Assembly: GCA_045589895.1 (NCBI GenBank) | Contig: JAZNPY010000002.1 | Location: forward strand, 34,546-98,545 | Reading direction: 5' to 3' | DNA from: Candidatus Nanosyncoccus sp. | Lineage (GTDB): Bacteria > Patescibacteriota > Saccharimonadia > Saccharimonadales > Saccharimonadaceae | Length of the DNA: 64,000 nt | Part shown: one piece after another, positions 4,671 through 45,817 of the stretch | Layout of the letters: every line of letters begins with the position of its first letter | How positions within the stretch are numbered: the first letter of the stretch is position 1 | Position numbers and translations under genes: made by a program | The notes under the pieces: generated by a model | Told to the model about the DNA's origin: nothing | The model's input: only the letters and a program-made list of their open reading frames with translations | Database searches by the model: none

Positions 4671-5657
4671 TTACCTCTTATGACCATTCTTTTGCTTACG
4701 CAAGGCAACGAATGCCAAAACGGTAGCAACGGTGAAGATGATTAGGCCAGAAATCAGATAGTCGAATCTCGACATATTGAGTTCGGCAAGGAAGCCACCC
4801 GTCTTTGGGACGTCTGGCGCCACTTCGTCCTGGTCACCATCGGTATCCGGGATATCCGGCGTGTCTGGCTCGTCAGGCGTATCTGGAGTATCTGGTTCGT
4901 CAGGACCATCTGGGGAAACGTAGTTCGCTTCGCTACTCACTATACCAGTAGCCGAAGTTAGAACTTCGCCGGCAGCATTCTTAGCTATTGCAGCAATAGT
5001 GTATTGACCGCTACTAGCATGATTGTCTCTAAACGGCAACGTGATGGTTTGGGTGCCTATGACTCCTGGGTTAGTAATCTGAACGTTGATCGGGCTAGAG
5101 AATACTGGTCTATTCGAAGAATCGTAAGCTTGAAGGTCGACCGAATTGACGGCGGAAGCATATTCAATTTCTACCGTTGGGTCGCCATTCTCTGCATTGG
5201 CAACCGTATTCATCTTTAACGGTATGTAGTAAAATTCTACGCTTGCATAATCCGAGCCATCGTTCACGGAAGAATCAAAGCGATATCTACCAAAACCTAG
5301 TCCGTTGGCATTGAGGTCGATAGGCAGCGCATGTGTGCCGTTGAGCTCGGCCGGCAGATACTCGCCATTCTTGGACCCACCAGTAGTAGTGTTGGCGATA
5401 GTGTAGGAAATCTTAACAGCCTGCGAATAGAAGAGGCCGATTTCCATATTATTGTTTAAAGTAATTGTTCCGTTGGCTGGACTTGTGATGTCTAGGCTAG
5501 CCACACTATCGAAGACATTCACCCTGAGGTTGACTGCTCCGCTGGTGCTACCAACAGCATCAACGTCCGGCGTAGGAACAGCAAAGGCATAGGCGGTCAT
5601 AGCTCCAACTATAGCTAAGCCACCTATGCCAAGTATACGTTTTTTGCTTTTTTGCAT
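4671..5657 (-). CDS. Secreted beta-rich surface protein with Pro/Asp linker and sortase-like VPKTG anchor
   Basis: N-terminal signal peptide; Ig-like Asn/Thr/Ser-rich body; PDEPDTPDTPDEPDTPDIPD linker; VPKTG, then a hydrophobic helix and RKQKNGHKR tail. Confidence 0.8.
   Translation of the reverse strand: MQKSKKRILGIGGLAIVGAMTAYAFAVPTPDVDAVGSTSGAVNLRVNVFDSVASLDITSPANGTITLNNNMEIGLFYSQAVKISYTIANTTTGGSKNGEYLPAELNGTHALPIDLNANGLGFGRYRFDSSVNDGSDYASVEFYYIPLKMNTVANAENGDPTVEIEYASAVNSVDLQAYDSSNRPVFSSPINVQITNPGVIGTQTITLPFRDNHASSGQYTIAAIAKNAAGEVLTSATGIVSSEANYVSPDGPDEPDTPDTPDEPDTPDIPDTDGDQDEVAPDVPKTGGFLAELNMSRFDYLISGLIIFTVATVLAFVALRKQKNGHKR
4840..4915 (-). repeat. Degenerate 9-bp coding repeats (PD[E/T/I])n
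   Basis: CCAGATGAG/CCAGATACT/CCTGACGA-type units encoding the Pro-Asp linker. Confidence 0.7.
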
Positions 5658-5731
5658 ACTCTACACTCTTTCTTTTTATTTTTAGTTTTTGTTTTGGCTT
5701 CGCAGAGTAGCGTACTCGCAATTTTTCAAAT

Positions 5732-6712
5732 CTAGACGAGGAGTCTGGATTTGCGCTCTCTGCGCTTCCTGATTAGGATTATAACCCAGATGATAATCAA
5801 TGTCAAGAGGATTATGCTTAAAATCATTACAAATACTGGCATAATCACGACAATCTTAGTTCTCTCTTCTACTACGGAGTTATTTAAAGCACTCACTTTG
5901 TAATGGACTTTGTAAAAACCGAGTAGTGGAGTCTCTTCCCACTCGGTAGTAACGCGGCGGGCGGTGTCCGGAAGAATATTGTAGGAACTATTCTTCAAGA
6001 AGAGCTGCTTGCCGAAAAGAGATTGGATATCGAGCTCATAGACAGCTTCGAAATCAGTGTTACCATTGTTCTCTACGCGGGAGCTAGCCGAAATTTTACC
6101 GGAAGTCATAAAGGTTTTGAAGCCGAAATCGGTGATTTTTGCTTCATCGATAGTATCACCATCGGTGTGACCATAGACGATTAAGCCGACGCGAGAGACT
6201 GTCTTAATACCGGAGCCAGAAACTTTACCCTCGACTTCGTCAGATTCAGCAAAGATAGTAGCATACTGACCGCCAGCAGGAATGCTATCCGGAACAGAGA
6301 TGCGATAGCGAACGGTTTGTTTCTCGCCTTTTTTCAGCTTGAAGTGGGCATCGCTAGTTAAAGAGCCATCGTCCTTATAGAACTGGATCCAGCGTGAAAT
6401 TTGGGTACGATTAGTTTCGTTACTAAAGCTAACGTTGTAGTCTTCATCACTGACCGAATATGGGGCAGCGTAGACATGATAGCCAAAGTCTTCGGAGCCG
6501 ATGTTCGAAACAGTGAAACTATAATCGCTATCCTCGCCAGGAATCAAAGTTACCTTATTGGATACCGGAGAAATCTGGAGCCAGATAGCAGGCTTAGAAT
6601 CTTCGGAAGAAGAGTCGTCAGTATCCTCAGCGTGGACAGTCGGGACAGCGGCAACGAGCGAGCTCAGCACTACTGCGGCTGCAGCTAGAATACTTACTAA
6701 ACGTTTACTCAT
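5732..6712 (-). CDS. DUF916/DUF3324-like (WxL-partner, PapD-like Ig) membrane-anchored protein 2
   Basis: Signal peptide; ISPVSNKVTLIPGE..FTVSN, PAGGQYATIFA, RVENNGN; C-terminal TM plus RKRRERK. Start moved to ATG 6712 (SD AGGAGG, overlapping the upstream stop). Confidence 0.75.
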   Translation of the reverse strand: MSKRLVSILAAAAVVLSSLVAAVPTVHAEDTDDSSSEDSKPAIWLQISPVSNKVTLIPGEDSDYSFTVSNIGSEDFGYHVYAAPYSVSDEDYNVSFSNETNRTQISRWIQFYKDDGSLTSDAHFKLKKGEKQTVRYRISVPDSIPAGGQYATIFAESDEVEGKVSGSGIKTVSRVGLIVYGHTDGDTIDEAKITDFGFKTFMTSGKISASSRVENNGNTDFEAVYELDIQSLFGKQLFLKNSSYNILPDTARRVTTEWEETPLLGFYKVHYKVSALNNSVVEERTKIVVIMPVFVMILSIILLTLIIIWVIILIRKRRERKSRLLV

Positions 6713-7694
6713 TTTCAGTTTCCTCCTTTTTTTCAGAATCACCTTTCTTTTTGCGAGAAACCTTGCTTTCTTTTCCACTGCGCTTACGAGCGCGGGAGAT
6801 AAGCCAGAAGATCATGAAGAAGATGATGGCAAAGATGATGAATAATAGCCAAATTGGGCAAATAAATACTAACTTTTTGTTTGTAGAAACTTGATCAAGG
6901 AAGCTAACGGTTTGTTCGACCCAGAAGATGCCGAGTCTAGGTGCACCATCCCAACTCATCGTACCAAAGCGCCTGGTCTCTGGCATGACGTCGAGTGAGC
7001 CCTTATTATCTTCGTTGTTATAGATCGTCTCTTTGTCGAAAAGTGGCCAAATCTTAAAAGTATATTCAGCAGTTGCTTCGACGTTGCCGTTATTCTCTAC
7101 GAGCGAGGTAACCGTAAGTGGTGGCTCGAAGACGATGCTAGGGATACTATTACTAACGACCGAGCCTTCTTTACGAGTTTCACCAGCGATCGAAGCATAG
7201 AAGATCATACCGACGCGGGAAATAGTGCGAACGTTATTCGCCTCACTAGAACCGTCACCGGTAGAAGCCATAATCGCAGCATACTGACCACCAGCAGGGG
7301 CGTCTTTCGGAACATTAACGGTAAAGTTAACGTCGGCTGATTCTCCTGCGGCGAGCGTGCCGCTCTTAGCCTTCTCGTCGAACGTAATCCACTCAGCGAT
7401 CCGACTGTATGTTCCAACATTATTGTAATTCTGAGTATAATTTTCGTCGACCACACTATATGGTACCGCTTCGACGGTATAATTAAATTCACCCTCGCCA
7501 ATATTCTGAACCTTCATCGAAGAAGTATAACTTCCACCCGGTTCAATCGAAACCTTCTGTTTCGTAGGTGTAATTTGGATAAAAGCTGGCGGAACTCCTT
7601 CGGCGGCAGCGGTAACTGGCGTCAGAAGCGCGGAGCCAACTGATGCTAGTGCGAAAAGCACAGCGGAAAATAATTTTGTGTATTTTTTAGCCAT
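6705..7694 (-). CDS. DUF916/DUF3324-like (WxL-partner, PapD-like Ig) membrane-anchored protein 1
   Basis: Paralog of the previous gene: ITPTKQKVSIEPGG..KVQN, PAGGQYAAIMA, LVENNGN, C-terminal TM and basic tail. Start moved to ATG 7694 (SD AAGGAGG). Confidence 0.75.
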   Translation of the reverse strand: MAKKYTKLFSAVLFALASVGSALLTPVTAAAEGVPPAFIQITPTKQKVSIEPGGSYTSSMKVQNIGEGEFNYTVEAVPYSVVDENYTQNYNNVGTYSRIAEWITFDEKAKSGTLAAGESADVNFTVNVPKDAPAGGQYAAIMASTGDGSSEANNVRTISRVGMIFYASIAGETRKEGSVVSNSIPSIVFEPPLTVTSLVENNGNVEATAEYTFKIWPLFDKETIYNNEDNKGSLDVMPETRRFGTMSWDGAPRLGIFWVEQTVSFLDQVSTNKKLVFICPIWLLFIIFAIIFFMIFWLISRARKRSGKESKVSRKKKGDSEKKEETENE

Positions 7695-7780
7695 TAACCT
7701 CCTTGTTATACGTTCGATTATACACGAGCACAAAGCGAAAATCAACCACATTTTTTCATAAACTTTTTAGCATAAAGGTC

Positions 7781-7809
7781 TTGCTATTTGGTTTATGCTT
7801 TGGTAGAAT
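7781..7809 (+). promoter_or_regulatory. Promoter of pilin/WxL-like gene A
   Basis: TTGCTA-N17-TAGAAT, followed by a 5' UTR containing AAGGTCACATA and SD CAGGAG. Confidence 0.6.
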
Positions 7810-7854
7810 AAAGCTATACATAAGGTCACATAAATGGACAGGAGTTGTATTCCA

Positions 7855-8529
7855 ATGAAAATGAACACTATTCTAGCAGTATCTGGTATAGTAGCCACTT
7901 CTTGCGTTTCGATGCTGCCTTTGGCTGCGTATGGTACCGTAACCTGCACTAACAACGGTCGCCAATGTGCCGACAGTGTAGATGTCGACATTACCGTGAA
8001 TCCGGTTATCGCGATGCGTATTAAATCTAATGCAGATTTGACTTATGGTTTTATCGGGTACGGTCCTAATGGTTCAGAACCGAGCCCAGACGATTCAACT
8101 TCTGGTAATTCTCAGGCGACTGGTCTAAGTTTGGCCGCGAACCAAGTAGACCTAACAACTCTTAACTCCGAAATTGATGTTCGTTCTAATACTGGTGCAT
8201 TTACCTTGACCTTAAAGGATGCTGACGATAACACAAACTTAAACCTAGCAACTCCTAGTAATACAACTGGCGAATATATCCCAACTGCAAACGGAACACC
8301 GGTCGCAACTACCGCTTCTTGGGCGGTTAAAGGCGGTGATATTGCTAACTGGACGGCTATGCCAGCTTCGAGTGGGTCAGCACTTGTAATCGTCAATAAC
8401 GGTGAAAATGATGTTACCCCAGCAGCCGCTTACAGTGGTGTAACAACAGTAAATTACGGCGTAGCTTCTGGATCGGCTAAGGCTGGTACCTATAGTGATG
8501 TTGTAGTCTATACGGCAACGACAAAATAA
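7855..8529 (+). CDS. Secreted WxL-like / pilin-like protein A
   Basis: Signal peptide; no membrane anchor; ends in GTYSDVVVYTATTK; paralog of 8810-9640. Start at ATG 7855 after SD CAGGAG. Confidence 0.7.
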   Translation: MKMNTILAVSGIVATSCVSMLPLAAYGTVTCTNNGRQCADSVDVDITVNPVIAMRIKSNADLTYGFIGYGPNGSEPSPDDSTSGNSQATGLSLAANQVDLTTLNSEIDVRSNTGAFTLTLKDADDNTNLNLATPSNTTGEYIPTANGTPVATTASWAVKGGDIANWTAMPASSGSALVIVNNGENDVTPAAAYSGVTTVNYGVASGSAKAGTYSDVVVYTATTK

Positions 8530-8550
8530 AATAGTTGGAATATAAATAAT

Positions 8551-8578
8551 AAAGCCACCTGGAGACAGGTGGCTTTTT
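8551..8578 (+). terminator. Intrinsic terminator
   Basis: AAAGCCACCTG-GAGA-CAGGTGGCTTTTT. Confidence 0.85.
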
Positions 8579-8761
8579 ATTGATACTAGTGTTTGTGTGG
8601 AGGAGTATATTACTTTATAATTAGCGATGGCCTTAGTAGAAAAATGAGATTGTACGAGAGCGTGGACTTTATGAGGAGATATAATATGGTGGAATAGACG
8701 CATTAGACTACTGAGTGAGATAATAATGGGAGACGTACTTATTCGAGGTTAATCCGAGTTC

Positions 8762-8795
8762 AAAAAAAAGACCGCCATTTGCGGCGGTCTTTTTT
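8762..8795 (-). terminator. Intrinsic terminator (bidirectional)
   Basis: A-run, GACCGCC-ATTT-GCGGCGGTC, T-run. Confidence 0.8.
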
Positions 8796-8809
8796 AGCTA
8801 CTGGGTTAA

Positions 8810-9640
8810 TTAGTTGTTAGTAGCAGTGTAGACGATAGTATCGCTATAGGTACCAGTCTTGGTAGCACCGGAAGCAACACCGTATGCAACGTGGATGTCA
8901 TCGGAGAAGGCGCCTACGCTGTTGGTGCCAGCAGCGGCGATAGTAGCAGCAGGACTACCGGTAGTAGGAACTTCATTCCAAATATTGCCGCTAGCAGCAG
9001 TAGCGTCAGCAATAGTACCTACGTAATAACCCCAACCAGCAGTGGTGCGGACGAGGCCCTGGTTAGTGCCACTTACGGATGGGATGAAGTTACCTGCAAC
9101 TTCGCTAGCTTCAGCGAGGTCTAGATCGTTAGTAGCATCAGCATCTTGAACGGTAAGAGTGAAGTTACCAGTGTTCGAACGGACGGAAATATTGGAATAT
9201 AGTGTGTCGTAATTAAACTGGTTGCCAGCTAGAGAGAGGCCAGTAGCCTGGGATGGACCAGCGGCAAGAATATCAGTGGCGTTCTGGGTACCATCTGGAT
9301 TTACCTTGAAGACACCGTAGTATGGGCTTAGAGAGTAGTAAGTTTTTTCGTTATCAACTTCCGTGTCTTCTGAAAGGGTATAGGTGTATGATGGTGCTTC
9401 ACCACTGCGCTCATACCAACCTTGGGTGCTTGGATTGCCACTAGGTTCCTGAACTTCAGTGTAAGTATTTTCAGCTGCATCAGCGTTGGAGTGAATGCGC
9501 ATAGCGATAGAATCGGTGATCTGAGCCTGAACGAGGACATTACCCGAAGTAGTAGCAGCATAGGAGCTGAGAGGTAGAGCGGCGACGCCGAGACCAGCGA
9601 CAACACCTAATGCAGCAATAATTTTTGTAGATTTGGACAT
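8810..9640 (-). CDS. Secreted WxL-like / pilin-like protein B
   Basis: Signal peptide; shares IAMRI.SNAD, SQATGLSLA.NQ, VRSNTG.FTLT..DAD and YGVASG...GTYSD..VYTAT with protein A. Confidence 0.75.
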   Translation of the reverse strand: MSKSTKIIAALGVVAGLGVAALPLSSYAATTSGNVLVQAQITDSIAMRIHSNADAAENTYTEVQEPSGNPSTQGWYERSGEAPSYTYTLSEDTEVDNEKTYYSLSPYYGVFKVNPDGTQNATDILAAGPSQATGLSLAGNQFNYDTLYSNISVRSNTGNFTLTVQDADATNDLDLAEASEVAGNFIPSVSGTNQGLVRTTAGWGYYVGTIADATAASGNIWNEVPTTGSPAATIAAAGTNSVGAFSDDIHVAYGVASGATKTGTYSDTIVYTATNN

Positions 9641-9687
9641 TTTTTATTTCCTTTCTATTTTTTATATATGACCTTTTTGTACTTCCT

Positions 9688-9716
9688 ATTTTATATTGCC
9701 AAAAAGCTTGTGTCAA
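9688..9716 (-). promoter_or_regulatory. Promoter of pilin/WxL-like gene B
   Basis: TTGACA-N17-TAAAAT on the minus strand; 5' UTR contains AAGGTCATATA. Confidence 0.7.
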
Positions 9717-9861
9717 TAGTTTTTTAAGCTTTTTTTAACTTTTTTTACATGTGCGTTTTTCCACAATTTTACCCCTGTTGTTTTGTGTCTTTTGTTGGAA
9801 AAAAATAGTAGCTTCCCTGACGTAGATTTAGCAACAAAAAACGTCCCAAGCGGGACTTTTT

Positions 9862-9951
9862 TGGTGCGCCTGACTAGACTCGAACTAGCACAGCCAAAAA
9901 ACGGCCACTACCACCTCAAGGTAGCGTGTCTACCAATTCCACCACAGGCGC
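9862..9951 (-). tRNA. tRNA-Leu(GAG)
   Basis: Reverse complement: acceptor GCGCCTG/CAGGCGC, anticodon arm CTACC-TTGAGGT-GGTAG, long variable arm, CCA; terminator hairpin at 9836-9861. Confidence 0.95.
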
Positions 9952-9984
9952 AAATTTATAAGGTACAAGTTTAGTATAGCACAC

Positions 9985-11472
9985 TTAGTTGATTTTGTAA
10001 ATGCGGATTGCTAGGTCGTAGGCCTTGTTTTGCGGGGAGAAGGCTCTTATTTCTTCCCATTCTTCCCTGGTGTTAACCTCGCCCATAGGATTGCCGCATG
10101 CGTTGAATCTGGCGATGATATATGTCGGGCGATCTTGGAACTCTAGGATGGCCTCGTCTAGCTCATTGTCGTCGACGACCTTAGCTTCGGAGTCCCAAAT
10201 CATATAGTCGAACGGCTTTTTGTCTACTACGTCATAAATCATGCGACCGCCCTCCATAAAAGGAACGAAGCCAATAGCTTGCGTCAGGGTGTCATCGGAT
10301 CCAACTAAGATTACGGCGTTGTCCTCTAGCAAATTGAGGACGTCGGATACTTCTTTAGAGTAGCTATATTGGCTGTCTATATCGTAATAAGCTTCGGAAA
10401 TGGTGTGCGGTACAGAGAGGACAATCGGTACGAAGCAAAAAGTGCCGATTGGAACGTAGTAAGAAATGAGCTTATATAATTCAAGCTTGCCAGTTAGACG
10501 GTCCAAGATGCTGCGTTTTAGACGCTTCTCTGATTTGGTAAGCCAGATGGCTAAGATGATTAGAAGGATAAACATGGCTGGCTTATGTGGCATAATCGTG
10601 GTGTTATAAGTGATGAAGAGTACCGAGAAATAAAAGCCGAAGCCGAAAAGTGAGTAGACGAAAATCTTTGGGTAGCGTGCGAAGAGGTAAATCATGATAA
10701 ATAGGAGACTGAGCTCGGTAATCGGCATAGCTAGACCGAACAGGACCAGATTGAAAGATTGCATGTATTCTGTCAGGCTCATACGGTACTGACCGTTTAA
10801 TGAAGGAGTGATGATTTGGTGGCTGTGGAGGGTGGTGAATACTGCCGGTAGCAAGAGCGCGAGAGCGCCGACGAGAATGAATGCTGGGATAATCATCTGG
10901 GTGAATTTCTTTGCTTTGATGCATTCGACGAAGAAACCAATCGAGAGTAGGGCGACAAATCCGCCGGCTAGTATGTGAGACTGGGAGAGTAAGGCGAGTG
11001 AAAGAATATAACGTATCGGATGTTCGTGACGCCCGGCATAGGTCAGTCCGACTAGGACAACGCCGAGGGCGATGAAGCTATAGTCGCGCGCGAAGACTGA
11101 GTTATAGTAGAAGAAGCCGGCCGATAGGATGATGACGATTTTTTGCCACCATTTGAATGGCGATTTCCAGAGTAGGAGGAATACAGCCAGAGAGACTATC
11201 GCTAAAGATAGGAAGTTTGTAGTGATGAAGGGTAAGCCAGCTTGGGCAAACGGAGCGAGAAAGAGAGGGTAAAGCGGGGAGTGCGGCTCATATTTTGTAA
11301 CCTCGAAAAGGTTCTCGAAGTTGATAATCTTGGCTATTTGCCAAGGATTAGCCTCATCGCACCATGGTTCATGACGGAAAATTAGAAAAACACCAATCGC
11401 CGCAAAGATAATTGTTGTAGCTACTGCAAGCCAAAAATTGGCTTTTTTGTTATCCTTCACTCTACCTCGCAT
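9985..11472 (-). CDS. GT-C fold (PMT/ArnT-like) polytopic membrane glycosyltransferase
   Basis: HEPWCDEANPW and YEPHSPLY in the first loop, ARDYS motif, more than 10 TM segments, soluble C-terminal domain. Confidence 0.75.
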   Translation of the reverse strand: MRGRVKDNKKANFWLAVATTIIFAAIGVFLIFRHEPWCDEANPWQIAKIINFENLFEVTKYEPHSPLYPLFLAPFAQAGLPFITTNFLSLAIVSLAVFLLLWKSPFKWWQKIVIILSAGFFYYNSVFARDYSFIALGVVLVGLTYAGRHEHPIRYILSLALLSQSHILAGGFVALLSIGFFVECIKAKKFTQMIIPAFILVGALALLLPAVFTTLHSHQIITPSLNGQYRMSLTEYMQSFNLVLFGLAMPITELSLLFIMIYLFARYPKIFVYSLFGFGFYFSVLFITYNTTIMPHKPAMFILLIILAIWLTKSEKRLKRSILDRLTGKLELYKLISYYVPIGTFCFVPIVLSVPHTISEAYYDIDSQYSYSKEVSDVLNLLEDNAVILVGSDDTLTQAIGFVPFMEGGRMIYDVVDKKPFDYMIWDSEAKVVDDNELDEAILEFQDRPTYIIARFNACGNPMGEVNTREEWEEIRAFSPQNKAYDLAIRIYKIN

Positions 11473-11498
11473 ATATTATATATTGTAGCACAAAAAGC

Positions 11499-13226
11499 TT
11501 ACGGTGTGCGGTTTTTTATGATTTTCTCTGTGGACCAGTAGGAAATATCATTAAAGCGATCTACTGGCGTAACCAAACGGTCGTCTTCAGAGAAGCTGCG
11601 GACGTTTTTGTTAACGTAATATGACATATTGACCTGATAGATGCCAAGGGCCGGAGCATCGTCAACCCAGAGCTTCAGGAATGCTTCGTATTTGGCGTTT
11701 CTGACTTCGGCGTCCATAGTTCCACGGGCGGCGAGAATGAGGTCGGAGGCGATAGTGTTGTTGTAGTTTGAAAGGTTAAGCCCAGTGGAAGTGGCCTGGG
11801 AAGAGTGGTAGTAGGCGAAAAGATCTGGGTCTGCGCCAAGTTCGATCTCCTGGATTAGGATGTCGTAGTCGCGTGGACGGATGACGGCAAGTAGGAAGTC
11901 TTGGCCAGGTTCATAAACGGTAAGTTCAACCTTAAAACCTAGATTTTCGAGCTGATATTTCAAGTTTTCGGCGACGCTAGATAGGTAACCGGTACTAGTG
12001 GTGACGAGGCGCAACGTGTTTTCAACGTTAGCTTCGCTGACCTTTTCTTTGGCATGTTCTGGGTTATAATCTGGTAGGCTCGGGAAATCTTTAATATCGA
12101 CTTGGGTTTTAAGAAGCGGGTAATCTAGCGGCAGCTCATCACCAATTGGTGCGCGAAGCGAGCGCATATCGACACCTTCCTGGACTGCTTTACGTAAAGT
12201 TTTACTGCTGAAAATATCGCCAGTAGTGTTGAAGAAGGCATAGACGCCGCTAGAGATGGCTGCTTGTTTTTCGTAGATGAGGCCGGAGGCAACTTCTTGA
12301 GAATCGGATGGAAGAAGCTCGGCAGTGGCGGTCACCGATCCATTTTTGACGGCGGCAATAATATCCTCGGTTGTCATATAGGCGTGTACGGCAAAACTGG
12401 CAAGGCGTGGCTCACCGTTATAGTAAGCTGGGTTTGGAGATAGATAAACAATCTTTTCGCCGGCAGTGCCGATGACCTGAGTAGCGTTGTAAGAGAAGGC
12501 GCCAGATGTGACCGGAGAAAGACTAAACGAGTCCTCGAGGAGAAGATCTGGATTGACGTTCTTTAGAATGTGAGCTGGTAAAATCGGGAAGTTCAAAGCA
12601 GAGGAGAAACTGGCGTAGGCGGAAGGTAAGGTGAAGATGACTGCGCCGTCTTCTTCGGAGACTTTGACGTTTGTAAGGTTGGCGGCATACGTAGATTTGA
12701 CCGACGGATGCTGGAGAATTGAGACAGTGTAGAGGACGTCTTCGCTAGTAATCGGTTCCCCGTCTGACCACTTAACGCCTTCGCGGAGTTTTACAGTCCA
12801 AACAAGACCGGATTCATCGGTCTTAATCGAAGATGCGAGTTCTGGGCCAATATGACCTGAGTAATCTGGGGCCGAAAGAGTAGCAAACATGAGTTTAGAG
12901 AGAGTACGTTCGCTGCTGGTCGAAGCAAAAAGTGGGTTTAAGGAGCTGACTTTGCCGAGTGTGGCCTCAGTATAAGTACCGCCCTTACCCCAAGTGGTAA
13001 CGGCATAGGATTCTTTATACCAAAAAGCCTGCGTAATGGCAAGCATGATGAGCGCGGCGATTAATAGCGCCCATTCGAGGATTAGCAGCCGGATTTTGCG
13101 AATATGAGGAAGTTTTTCAACTACATTTTCTTGAATGTGTTCACGGCTATCAGTACTAGCTTTCTTCGAAAAACGAGAAAGATTTCTAACGATTCTCTGC
13201 CCACGCTTTTCCAGAAATTTCTTCAT
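11499..13226 (-). CDS. ABC transporter family 5 (peptide/nickel) substrate-binding protein, membrane anchored
   Basis: SLNPLFA, WTVKLREGVKWSDGEPITSEDVLYT, PVTSGAF, DPDLFAYYHSSQ motifs. Confidence 0.9.
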   Translation of the reverse strand: MKKFLEKRGQRIVRNLSRFSKKASTDSREHIQENVVEKLPHIRKIRLLILEWALLIAALIMLAITQAFWYKESYAVTTWGKGGTYTEATLGKVSSLNPLFASTSSERTLSKLMFATLSAPDYSGHIGPELASSIKTDESGLVWTVKLREGVKWSDGEPITSEDVLYTVSILQHPSVKSTYAANLTNVKVSEEDGAVIFTLPSAYASFSSALNFPILPAHILKNVNPDLLLEDSFSLSPVTSGAFSYNATQVIGTAGEKIVYLSPNPAYYNGEPRLASFAVHAYMTTEDIIAAVKNGSVTATAELLPSDSQEVASGLIYEKQAAISSGVYAFFNTTGDIFSSKTLRKAVQEGVDMRSLRAPIGDELPLDYPLLKTQVDIKDFPSLPDYNPEHAKEKVSEANVENTLRLVTTSTGYLSSVAENLKYQLENLGFKVELTVYEPGQDFLLAVIRPRDYDILIQEIELGADPDLFAYYHSSQATSTGLNLSNYNNTIASDLILAARGTMDAEVRNAKYEAFLKLWVDDAPALGIYQVNMSYYVNKNVRSFSEDDRLVTPVDRFNDISYWSTEKIIKNRTP

Positions 13227-43921: not shown

Positions 43922-43954
43922 AAAAAAATAACCCCTTAAAGGGGCTATTTTTTT
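43922..43954. terminator. Bidirectional intrinsic terminator
   Basis: A-run, TAACCCC-TTAAA-GGGGCTA, T-run. Confidence 0.75.
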
Positions 43955-43956
43955 AG

Positions 43957-45762
43957 CTAGGCCTTGAGTGCATCGGTATTGGCGATTAGGCGCTCTTTGA
44001 AAGCGACACGAGCTTTGTCTACATTCTCATTATCACCTTTCCAGGCAAAAAGTGCTGGATCTTGAAGTGCGCGGGCAAACGAGAAAGTAACTGGCCATGG
44101 GAAGGGACCGTTTCTAAGGATCGCACGAAGGTTTTCAGTGGCCTGCTCGACGGTTTGACCGCCAGATAGGAAAACTACGCCAGCCAGAGTTTCTGGCACA
44201 TGCGCCCTGAGAATATCTGCAGTAGCACGACCGACTTCTTCGGTAGTACTTTGGATTGGGTATTGCTTACCAGCAAGAATCATATTACATTTTAAGATGC
44301 AGCCGTCCAGTCTGACATTGGCCTTCGAAAGTTCATCAAAGAGTGCATCGAGAACTTTGCTAGTAACATCAGCGCATTGTTCAATAGTGTAATTACCATC
44401 ATAAACAACTTCCGGTTCGACGATTGGAACAATATTAGCTTGCTGACAAGCTTTAGCGTACTTAGCTAAGATCTCGGCATTCTTGGTAATAGCCATCTCG
44501 CTAGGGGTATCATTCGTGACTTCAAAAGCAGCGCGCCACTTTGCAAAACGCAATCCCTGCTGATAATAATCATCTAGGCGTTTAGCTAGGCCATCTAGCC
44601 CTTCAGTGTATTTTTCATTAGAATCGGCAAAATTTACTAGACCCTGATCAACTTTGACACCAGGTATAATGCCATGAGCAGTGAGATAGGCGACAAAATC
44701 ACGACCATCGTCGGACATTTGTCTAGTGGTCTCGTCAAATAAGATTACACCGTTGATATAACGTTCGAGTTCAGGAGTACCGATAAAGATATTACGGTAA
44801 TCGCGGCGATGCGGTTCGTCGTCTGGGATATTAAGCTGCTCGAATTTTTTATGGATAGAACCGCCAGATTCATCAGCGGCAAGAATACCCTTGCCCGCCG
44901 TCATCAGCTGAGCGGCGACTAGGTTAATGTCGGCTTCTACGTCGTCGTAGTTTTTGGCTAGATTTTCGAGCTTTTCGAGTGAAATTGTACCAGAAAGCGA
45001 GGAATTTTCAACGTTGAGCTTGGCTAGTTTCAGGGCCTCGCGAACAGATTTGCCGTAAAGTAAATAACTAAAGACTGAGGCAGCAATAATAGAATGCGTG
45101 GTGGAACGAGTCATGAGATCGGTACGTTCAACTCGCCAATTTTGAGTAACTTCTCCGAGAACAATCTCGCTATCAGAAATTTCACAGACGGAACCAGGGC
45201 GCTTAATGTCGTGGCCGAGTTTGCCATCTACAAAGAGCATGCTGGCAATATCAAGAAGTGGCTTTTCGGCTTCAGTGAGATTCTCGGAAACATAGGCAGC
45301 CACACGAGTATGTGAAGACATAGAAAGGAAATTTTTGATTTCTCTAACTAGGTCCGGGGTAACGCCGGCAGAATGGTCAACGTAAATCCAGTCGATTGCT
45401 TCGCTAGGGTTTGCCCAGACAGTATCTTCACGATCGTTAGACGTGAGATAGGCGATTTTATTACCGCGGCAAAGAATATAGCGATAGCCAGCAGCAATCT
45501 GGTCGTTCGGAACGACTTCACCACCAACGAAACCAAGACGGGCACCAGCGATATGGGCATCATGACCAAAACGGTTCATAACTTCGAGAGCAACCGCTGC
45601 ACCGCCATAGATAGAAGAGCGGCGAAAGAAATTGTAGTTACTGCCATTAAAAGCGAAATCTAGCCAAGGAGTTCCCTGCTCGTCGATTTCAAAATTGTTT
45701 AGTCTCTCGTCCAACCGAAGGTAGACGTCTTTAAAGATATTCCCAACTATAAGCACATTCAT
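43957..45762 (-). CDS. Fusion: degenerate PfkB-like domain plus class I fructose-bisphosphate aldolase
   Basis: C-terminal about 330 aa: KGILAADES, GVKVD, AKWR, IVPIVEPE, ILKCNM, FLSGGQ, FSFARAL. N-terminal about 270 aa resembles the ribokinase fold. Confidence 0.88.
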   Translation of the reverse strand: MNVLIVGNIFKDVYLRLDERLNNFEIDEQGTPWLDFAFNGSNYNFFRRSSIYGGAAVALEVMNRFGHDAHIAGARLGFVGGEVVPNDQIAAGYRYILCRGNKIAYLTSNDREDTVWANPSEAIDWIYVDHSAGVTPDLVREIKNFLSMSSHTRVAAYVSENLTEAEKPLLDIASMLFVDGKLGHDIKRPGSVCEISDSEIVLGEVTQNWRVERTDLMTRSTTHSIIAASVFSYLLYGKSVREALKLAKLNVENSSLSGTISLEKLENLAKNYDDVEADINLVAAQLMTAGKGILAADESGGSIHKKFEQLNIPDDEPHRRDYRNIFIGTPELERYINGVILFDETTRQMSDDGRDFVAYLTAHGIIPGVKVDQGLVNFADSNEKYTEGLDGLAKRLDDYYQQGLRFAKWRAAFEVTNDTPSEMAITKNAEILAKYAKACQQANIVPIVEPEVVYDGNYTIEQCADVTSKVLDALFDELSKANVRLDGCILKCNMILAGKQYPIQSTTEEVGRATADILRAHVPETLAGVVFLSGGQTVEQATENLRAILRNGPFPWPVTFSFARALQDPALFAWKGDNENVDKARVAFKERLIANTDALKA

Positions 45763-45787
45763 GCTTTGATTATACCATAGTCTGTAT

Positions 45788-45817
45788 AAAAAATATCCCC
45801 TTTCGGGGATATTTTTT
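45788..45817 (-). terminator. Intrinsic terminator after rplY
   Basis: A-run, ATATCCCC-TTTC-GGGGATAT, T-run. Confidence 0.8.

Follow-up and report, generated by a model that had tools for sequence, protein, structure and literature searches.

A putative PfkB-derived pseudokinase domain fused to class I fructose-bisphosphate aldolase in gut Saccharibacteria

Introduction

Fusions of a kinase to an aldolase are a known theme. The NCBIfam models NF047869 (5-dehydro-2-deoxygluconokinase/aldolase) and NF041633 (KHG/KDPG aldolase/sugar kinase) each describe a PfkB kinase fused to an aldolase of the same pathway. Here we describe a protein of comparable layout, encoded in a 64,000-nucleotide stretch of DNA, referred to as the window, from a Candidatus Nanosyncoccus sp. 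(assembly GCA_045589895.1, contig JAZNPY010000002.1, positions 34,546 to 98,545). The protein has 601 amino acids (aa); its C-terminal half is a class I fructose-1,6-bisphosphate (FBP) aldolase (FBA), and its N-terminal domain, residues 1-275 (N-domain), has a predicted ribokinase/PfkB fold and lacks the kinase motifs. The fusions described by the two models belong to other aldolase families and pathways, with both halves active, and the window protein matches neither model; both models gave weak matches to PfkB kinases of this Saccharibacteria group.

The closest functional analogies for the N-domain appear to be plant FLN1/FLN2 and the yeast sensor Gal3p. FLN1 and FLN2 are of the pfkB type and form part of the plastid RNA polymerase complex; their catalytic role is described as unknown (PMC3409070). 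They are established as subunits of a complex and not as sugar kinases, but they are eukaryotic, carry no fused metabolic enzyme and act in transcription, and are linked to the N-domain by superfamily only. Gal3p resembles a galactokinase but is a sensor, binding sugar and ATP with no catalysis (summarised in PMC3409070). As a sugar-kinase homolog that acts through ligand binding it offers an analogy for a sensor, whereas it has the GHMP fold, still binds ATP and targets a transcription regulator. In the literature we found no description of a PfkB-class I FBA fusion, of a dead derivative or of a bacterial PfkB pseudokinase, and both the fusion and its derivative are apparently undescribed.

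Saccharibacteria are obligate episymbionts with genomes of 0.6-1.1 Mb. Their sugar metabolism was only recently shown experimentally, in TM7x, where the phosphofructokinase (PFK) step was called 'missing or ambiguously annotated' and a 'ribokinase' in the aldolase operon was predicted to be a pfkB-type PFK (PMC12815258). The public annotation of the fused protein is merely 'fructose-bisphosphate aldolase class I'.

Results

The N-terminal domain has a ribokinase fold

Direct sequence searches with the N-domain returned no match in Pfam, NCBIfam or PDB sequences, neither with phmmer nor with hmmsearch using a 21-sequence profile. The sole PDB 'hit' was Asp1 at E 0.26, and PF00294 did not match the window protein even at E<=1. 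An AlphaFold2 model built from a 34-sequence alignment reached a predicted local distance difference test score (pLDDT) of 87.7 and a predicted template modelling score (pTM) of 0.87. When this model was searched against the PDB with Foldseek, the matches were exclusively PfkB-family kinases (E 1e-11 to 1e-9, probability 1.00, 10-15% identity), among them HldA, ribokinase, ketohexokinase and acarbose kinase. VIA-align superimposed ketohexokinase and E. coli ribokinase over 235-250 residues spread across residues 1-275, with Z 19.5 and a root mean square deviation of 3.2-3.6 A, and both methods identified the ribokinase alpha/beta/alpha core with its beta-sheet lid. In the ESM Atlas, PfkB clusters ranked directly after the protein's own kin. 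The family was thus recognised only by structural and profile-profile methods, as direct sequence searches had given nothing. An earlier note on this DNA, written from the sequence alone, had placed the N-terminal ~270 aa on the PfkB pattern and suggested modelling them; the fold was confirmed, and profile comparison gave homology to PfkB at a probability of 98-99%.

Compared with the PfkB/ribokinase kinases (PF00294; 1RKA/1RKD, 2HQQ/9P6Q), the whole N-domain shares the fold (Z ~19.5, 235-250 residues), the N-terminal G-x4-D strand, the GG hinge, the beta-sheet lid and the C-terminal helix pair. It differs in having no PF00294 match, an Asp to Ser exchange, an interrupted anion hole, no NxxE motif, ~25 and 5 residues deleted on the ATP side and an identity of 10-16%. 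The full-length AlphaFold2 model had both domains well folded (pLDDT 87.1), joined by one long helix. Its pTM was 0.59, so the relative orientation of the domains is not fixed in the model and no confident interface was obtained.

The N-terminal domain derives from type A PfkB

Canonical PfkB in this Saccharibacteria family comes in two kinds. Type B, with the motif KDTTGAGDAFGSGF, is near-universal (116/121 genomes). Type A, with the motif ERTGAGDAFAST, is present in roughly half of the genera, usually as a protein of ~505 aa that is extended at its N-terminus. This extension of ~170-185 aa (residues 1-185 of P0239; ~505-aa frames in many genera) has no Pfam match.

Profile-profile alignment with hhalign of the N-domain profile (alignment A2) gave probabilities of 98.2% (E 5e-14, local) and 99.2% (E 2e-18, global) against type A, and of 3.6% against type B. 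The type A profile was needed for this result; against a single canonical PfkB sequence only the last helix was aligned. The strings ETDEQG and YxYxL are common to the N-domain family and type A. In an exhaustive hidden Markov model search of 1.84 billion representatives, 131 proteins were found at E<=1e-3, and those positive for PF00294 were type A kinases only; the A2 profile matches PF00294-positive proteins at E 1e-12 to 1e-4. We concluded from these profile comparisons that the N-domain is of type A and not type B descent.

Fusions with an intact kinase half were also found. P0240 (669 aa) consists of a type A kinase fused to the same class I aldolase lineage; in P0240, G173 and G031 both PF00294 (E 2e-31) and PF00274 were matched and the motifs DRTGAGDAF and NKEE are kept. 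With the type A model the intact fusions reach 450-526 bits. They share with the window protein the domain order, the aldolase lineage and the ancestral kinase lineage, as does the diverged G341, but differ in the retained motifs and in that their genomes also contain class II FBA, transketolase and type B PfkB. No publication on these intact fusions was found.

An origin of the N-domain from the TM7x 'ribokinase next to FBA' was considered and rejected. The TM7x gene is of type B and adjoins a class II FBA, and none of 21 fused loci had a canonical PfkB within 6 kb.

Nucleotide-side motifs are lost and the sugar side is better kept

In the profile-profile alignment the string TTHS took the position of GAGD, with the catalytic Asp aligned to S224. 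The earlier note had read RSTTHSII at this position, which is in agreement, and the alignment with orthologs that it had proposed showed GAGD to be absent throughout the family. The first Gly of the motif is replaced by D215, a 6-residue insertion follows, and A-G-D has become T-H-S224, with x-Y-S, (S/T)-x-(Y/H)-S as the family consensus; D215 and T218 are newly conserved in the former loop. Both GAGD, which in DTxGAGD provides the anion hole and the catalytic Asp, and NxxE are absent throughout the N-domain family. NREE of type A corresponds to D/E179, and the second Glu is deleted together with the next ~25 residues. The ITDGPxG strand can no longer be recognised, and the adenine loop has lost 5 residues. 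Five nucleotide or catalytic elements are therefore substituted or deleted, namely NxxE, the helix after NxxE, TDGxG, GAGD and the adenine loop. Kinase activity is unlikely because all five are lost, and the domain is presumably kinase-dead.

The decay is asymmetric. Among positions at least 90% conserved in type A, 22 of the 48 on the lid/sugar side are kept or conservatively replaced and 2 are deleted, as against 8 kept and 14 deleted of the 45 on the ATP/catalytic side. G7 and D12, the position of the sugar-binding Asp of PfkB, are kept, and K11, Y14 and D18 show little or no variation across the N-domain family. Neither D12 nor G54 varies, and G53 reaches at least 90% conservation, so that both the N-terminal Asp and the GG pair are found; the Asn after GG is lost. 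The residues G7, D12, D27, F38, Y95 and N250 are inherited from type A, while K11, R94, D129, S131, D215, T218 and E252 were newly fixed in the dead family.

The domain is under strong purifying selection

To the closest relative (L071) the window protein showed a ratio of nonsynonymous to synonymous substitution rates (dN/dS, Nei-Gojobori) of 0.018 in the N-domain (dN 0.018, dS 0.97) and 0.020 in the aldolase; a second pair gave 0.03. At larger distances dS was saturated and dN of the N-domain was ~1.3-1.4x that of the aldolase. The invariant polar residues of the N-domain persist across 30-40% identity. Purifying selection on the N-domain is as strong as that on the aldolase, and a stretch of 270 non-catalytic residues kept at dN/dS ~0.02 in a reduced genome argues for a real function. 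By its homology, its motif loss, the dN/dS of 0.018-0.03 and its retention in 36/37 genomes of three genera, the N-domain qualifies as a pseudokinase in the operational sense, as a homolog of an active enzyme that has lost catalytic residues and is constrained.

The aldolase half is predicted to be competent

Residues 282-599 matched PF00274 with E 6e-112 and 374 bits (cut-off 22.2), and the NCBIfam equivalog NF033379 with 411 bits against a cut-off of 250. All class I aldolase motifs, AADES, GVKVDQG, FAKWR, IVEPEV, ILKCNM, FLSGGQ and SFARALQ, are intact in translation and alignment, and L490 and the Schiff-base Lys K491 are invariant among 34 homologs. The reading of this half as a class I aldolase with its Schiff-base Lys in place was thus borne out. 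The catalytic roles of the AADES Asp, the VKVD Lys, the AKWR Lys/Arg, the VEPE Glu, the LSGG Ser and the ARAL Arg are those which we take over from muscle aldolase. By these motifs the fused class I FBP aldolase is predicted to be a catalytically competent enzyme.

A very abundant clade of dead-kinase fusions on a long branch (P0082, P0092, P0113 and relatives; 607-612 aa, up to 125 contigs) has AADEDDQT in place of the phosphate-binding AADESGGS of the aldolase and IESD in place of VEPE, with the Schiff-base Lys kept. Its aldolase may have an altered substrate specificity.

Fusion, inactivation and loss across genera

Class I FBA has a scattered distribution in the family (25/121 genomes, 12/73 genera) and lies nearly always inside a frame of 550-710 aa. 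Strong N-domain matches were found in 20/20 genomes of the genus of the window, 5/5 of g27 and 11/12 of g20, that is 36/37 in three genera with genomes of 0.6-1.1 Mb; overall, at least five genera have kept the dead domain. About 140 fused homologs of ~600 aa were found; together with the 20/20 genomes of the same genus, this argues that the 601-aa open reading frame (ORF) is not a chance or one-off event.

Several stages can be told apart. In g174 an unfused FBA occurs with a separate type A kinase, and g12 and g183 have an active-looking fusion. The kinase is dead with the ATP-side helix still kept in g20 (L021), and dead with further deletions in g1, which includes the window, and in g27, g168 and g166. 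Both halves are degenerate, with the Schiff-base Lys replaced by Gln, in g173 and g198, and orphan dead domains without an aldolase are found in G263, L048 and L049. In a maximum likelihood tree of the aldolase domain, all dead-kinase fusions were united in a single clade (99/98), to which g20 was sister (85/92); the intact fusions were a neighbouring group (86/91) and the unfused g174 proteins fell outside. The tree has a midpoint root only, and the sequences with both halves dead sit on very long branches. The single dead-kinase clade indicates that the kinase was lost once, and the tree fits one fusion followed by one inactivation.

In g173 and g198 (L069 2316-4181(-), L081 1457-3301(-), L077 1356-3008(-)) the fused ORF has 550-620 aa, with ILQTNL or LLQTNL at the Schiff-base site, AADES gone and an FBA score of 58-82 bits; if expressed, the product would be a double pseudoenzyme.

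The standalone domains keep most of the family's conserved positions, 21/23 in L048 and 19/23 in L049. In L048 (2426-4819) the orphan gene directly follows a HAD/PMM-like sugar phosphatase gene (2-bp gap), adjoins the triosephosphate isomerase (TIM) gene and has a convergent L25 gene 11 bp downstream. The same TIM-HAD-N-domain neighbourhood is seen in L047. There, one ORF for the N-domain and one for the aldolase overlap by 1 nt (4780-4815), and this apparent gene split was rejected as most likely an assembly frameshift; the frame switches at an A-run in a contig of 2.9x coverage, and the aldolase frame extends upstream with a homologous linker.

The G263 orphan (L068 3526-4401(+), G263:C1) is an intact 291-aa copy that retains D129, T218, N250 and E252 and has diverged at lid positions (D12N, W33H, R94Q). 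Its genome belongs to the same genus as the window and is 99% complete; both FBA classes, transketolase and glucose-6-phosphate isomerase (PGI) are lost and TIM is kept. The gene lies downstream of genes for a histidine kinase, a response regulator and a pseudouridine synthase. ENA metagenomes contain very many nearly identical copies of this type, in clusters of 692 and 757 members. The idea that they form a large ESM Atlas subfamily was discarded, as there are five 90% clusters only and the largest three are 96-97% identical.

Sugar metabolism in the genome of the window

The genome of the window is that of a gut Saccharibacteria (692 kb, 96.9% complete). We found in it no PfkA, class II FBA, transketolase, GlpX or class I fructose-1,6-bisphosphatase (FBPase); GlpX and class I FBPase were not found in five genomes. 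With class II FBA absent, the genome is left with the fused class I enzyme as its sole FBP aldolase. It does encode TIM, a divergent PGI and a single type B PfkB, which has an intact DTTGAGD motif, adjoins Rpe and scores 148 bits on PF00294. This type B PfkB is the likely PFK and the only credible one. The PGI (G000:C15:79458-80069) is very divergent; its 433-aa frame scores only 58 bits on PF00342, matching profile positions 99-310, and no PGI was found in 3/4 related genomes searched. The idea that type B was acquired as a replacement for the dead kinase was rejected, as type B is near-universal in the family.

In G334, a typical complete relative, the operon reads RpiB-Rpe-Tkt-Tkt-class II FBA-type B PfkB and type A lies farther downstream, matching the TM7x report of a 'ribokinase' beside FBA (TM7x_02415). 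The start of type B PfkB overlaps the stop of FBA, and type A with its N-terminal extension and a SLOG/LOG-like gene follow. Transketolase is present and no transaldolase was found in the operon, so FBA and PfkB might there also serve a sedoheptulose-bisphosphate bypass.

Discussion

The PfkB-like genes of these episymbionts can be sorted into three kinds: type B, which lies beside class II FBA within an operon for the pentose-phosphate pathway and glycolysis; type A, the second kinase, which fused with an unrelated aldolase of class I; and the dead descendant of type A, hidden by automatic annotation inside 'fructose-bisphosphate aldolase class I'. In the mechanism that we propose, the N-domain would be a pseudokinase derived from a type A kinase that was once active and fused to the same aldolase. 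Phosphate transfer would have been lost, and a rigid helix would join the pseudokinase to the aldolase. K11, D12, R94, D129, S131, D215, T218, N250 and E252 would line the former active-site cleft, which may still bind a small ligand, probably a sugar phosphate. In that case the N-domain would serve the aldolase as a non-catalytic module for sensing or assembly, and the separate type B PfkB kinase would supply FBP. Binding of a small ligand appears most likely because the lid/sugar side is better preserved and new invariant polar residues lie in the cleft. We put the probability of a non-catalytic ligand-binding or regulatory module at roughly 0.4, and at roughly 0.6 jointly with the framework of fold, ancestry, motif loss, single origin, constraint and status as sole aldolase. 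The allosteric sugar-phosphate sensor imagined in the earlier note is plausible. The FBP channelling between kinase and aldolase that it also proposed may apply to the intact fusions of sister genera such as P0240, and not to this protein.

Several observations weigh against such a module. Probable sugar- or phosphate-binding residues of type A are changed as well (N to G54, R to I103). The full-length model has no confident interdomain packing (pTM 0.59) and gives no structural hint of regulation in cis. The standalone copies imply that an aldolase in cis is not required, and an autonomous function fits them better than a purely allosteric appendage. The term 'kinase-dead' is drawn from motif loss, and the role of type B as PFK is a prediction; its best NCBIfam match is ribokinase, below the cut-off.

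The N-domain could instead be a docking or assembly module, in which the lid as a 'beta-clasp' homodimerises the aldolase or heterodimerises with the active type B PfkB. PfkB kinases dimerise through the lid, and the lid strands with the aromatic residues W33, F38, Y95, Y105, W116 and W125 are among the best conserved parts of the N-domain. Since the ancestor was a kinase-aldolase fusion, pairing with type B would restore non-covalently what had been covalent. Type B is kept in every dead-fusion genome, but with its presence in 116/121 genomes the co-occurrence is uninformative, and an interface leaves the invariant charged cleft residues D12, D129, D215 and E252 unexplained; we regard docking as unlikely. 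In another reading the remodelled cleft would be a new active site without kinase activity, for example a phosphatase or another FBP/fructose-6-phosphate conversion. Precisely where type A has catalytic residues, new invariant acidic or polar ones have arisen (S to D129, G to D215, D to S224, M to E252), selection is very strong, the standalone copies keep the new residues, and neither GlpX nor class I FBPase was found in five genomes. Against this, the structural neighbours are all kinases with no known ribokinase-fold phosphatase among them, a gluconeogenic FBPase has no obvious use for a fermentative episymbiont, and the proposal is pure inference from conservation; we regard it as distinctly improbable. 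A wider proposal has the cleft rebuilt as a new functional site, with K11, R94, D129, S131, D215, T218 and E252 newly invariant around the retained D12, G54 and N250, and leaves the role to new catalysis, to metabolite sensing that gates the sole aldolase or to docking of type B as a PFK-aldolase metabolon. This is doubtful; if true, a died enzyme domain would have been re-employed under extreme genome reduction, with the intermediate stages alive in sister genera.

That the N-domain is itself the 'missing' Saccharibacteria PFK, with non-canonical catalytic residues, would suit the absence of PfkA from the genome and the PFK of TM7x, described as missing or ambiguous (PMC12815258). A fusion with the enzyme of the following pathway step would be sensible and the domain is strongly constrained. 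To our knowledge, every known ribokinase-superfamily kinase keeps the GxG anion hole, whereas here NxxE, the following helix, TDGxG, GAGD and the adenine loop are all substituted or deleted; moreover, the genome has an intact canonical PfkB, and relatives with intact motifs show what the active version looks like. Such a cryptic kinase is very improbable, and the N-domain should not be counted as a PFK in metabolic reconstructions. We give next to no weight to a functionless relic heading for deletion. The N-domain does derive from an inactivated enzyme, and shrinkage in g166, decay of both halves in g173 and g198 and fast divergence after aldolase loss in G263 are what a relic would show; but the dN/dS of 0.018-0.03, equal to that of the aldolase, already contradicts it, as do the retention in 20/20, 5/5 and 11/12 genomes of three genera whose genome size is 0.6-1.1 Mb and the persistence of invariant polar residues at 30-40% identity. 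Returning to the non-catalytic module that we prefer, its living intermediates make the series a tractable model for the origin and re-use of a pseudoenzyme.

Gene and locus

All motif strings quoted in the earlier note were recovered in the translation of the 601-aa ORF: IVGNIFKDVYL at residues 5-15, YGGAAV at 52-57, DWIYVD at 124-129, TRSTTHSII at 218-226, GKSVREALKLA at 237-247 and ILKCNM at 489-494. The coordinates of the features are collected in Table 1.

Table 1. Features of the aldolase gene, its flanks and the operon of a relative. Coordinates refer to the window unless a locus is given.
Feature	Residues or sequence	Coordinates	Strand	Remark and basis
Whole gene P0001	601 aa	43957..45762	(-)	PfkB-derived putative pseudokinase domain, connecting helix and class I FBP aldolase; ORF list, translation
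N-terminal domain P0002	1-275	44938..45762	(-)	ribokinase/PfkB fold without kinase motifs
First strand and lid strand	7-18, GNIFKDVYLRLD	45709..45744	(-)	alignment A2, mapping onto type A
GG hinge/lid counterpart	53-55, GGA	45598..45606	(-)	alignments
Former NxxE site	177-181, FVDGK	45219..45233	(-)	counterpart of type A LNREEA; alignments
Former xRTGAGDAF loop	213-226, RTDLMTRSTTHSII	45085..45126	(-)	hhalign, multiple alignment, position table
Connecting helix	262-286	44905..44979	(-)	one long helix; full-length AlphaFold2 secondary structure
Class I FBP aldolase domain	282-599	43966..44919	(-)	Pfam, NCBIfam, motif reading
Schiff-base lysine K491 in ILKCNM	489-494	44281..44298	(-)	alignment
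Extended -10 box	TGGTATAAT	45769..45777	(-)	6 nt before ATG; consensus match only
Hairpin and T-run terminator of L25 gene	ATATCCCC-GAAA-GGGGATAT then T's	45787..45812	(-)	sequence reading
GC hairpin between convergent aldolase and L27 genes		43932..43944	(.)	candidate terminator
G334 operon		L066 (G334:C1:467000-479000), ORFs 4844-6328, 7063-8031, 8031-8942, 8951-10839, 10811-11455, 11458-11910	(-)	

The aldolase gene is flanked by the ribosomal L25 gene, upstream on the same strand, and by the convergent L27 gene. By sequence reading, the hairpin terminator of L25 separates the two genes on the upstream side. Between the extended -10 box and the start codon (window 45763-45777) there is no Shine-Dalgarno sequence, and with the box 6 nt from the ATG the mRNA is probably leaderless; together this suggests a promoter of its own and a leaderless, monocistronic mRNA. 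The GC hairpin on the other side is likely a terminator common to the aldolase and L27 genes.

A further 593-aa frame (L076 2353-4131(+), G330:C1) combines a class I FBA that lacks its C-terminal part with a CobW-like GTPase that lacks its N-terminal part, and is probably a deletion or a misassembly.

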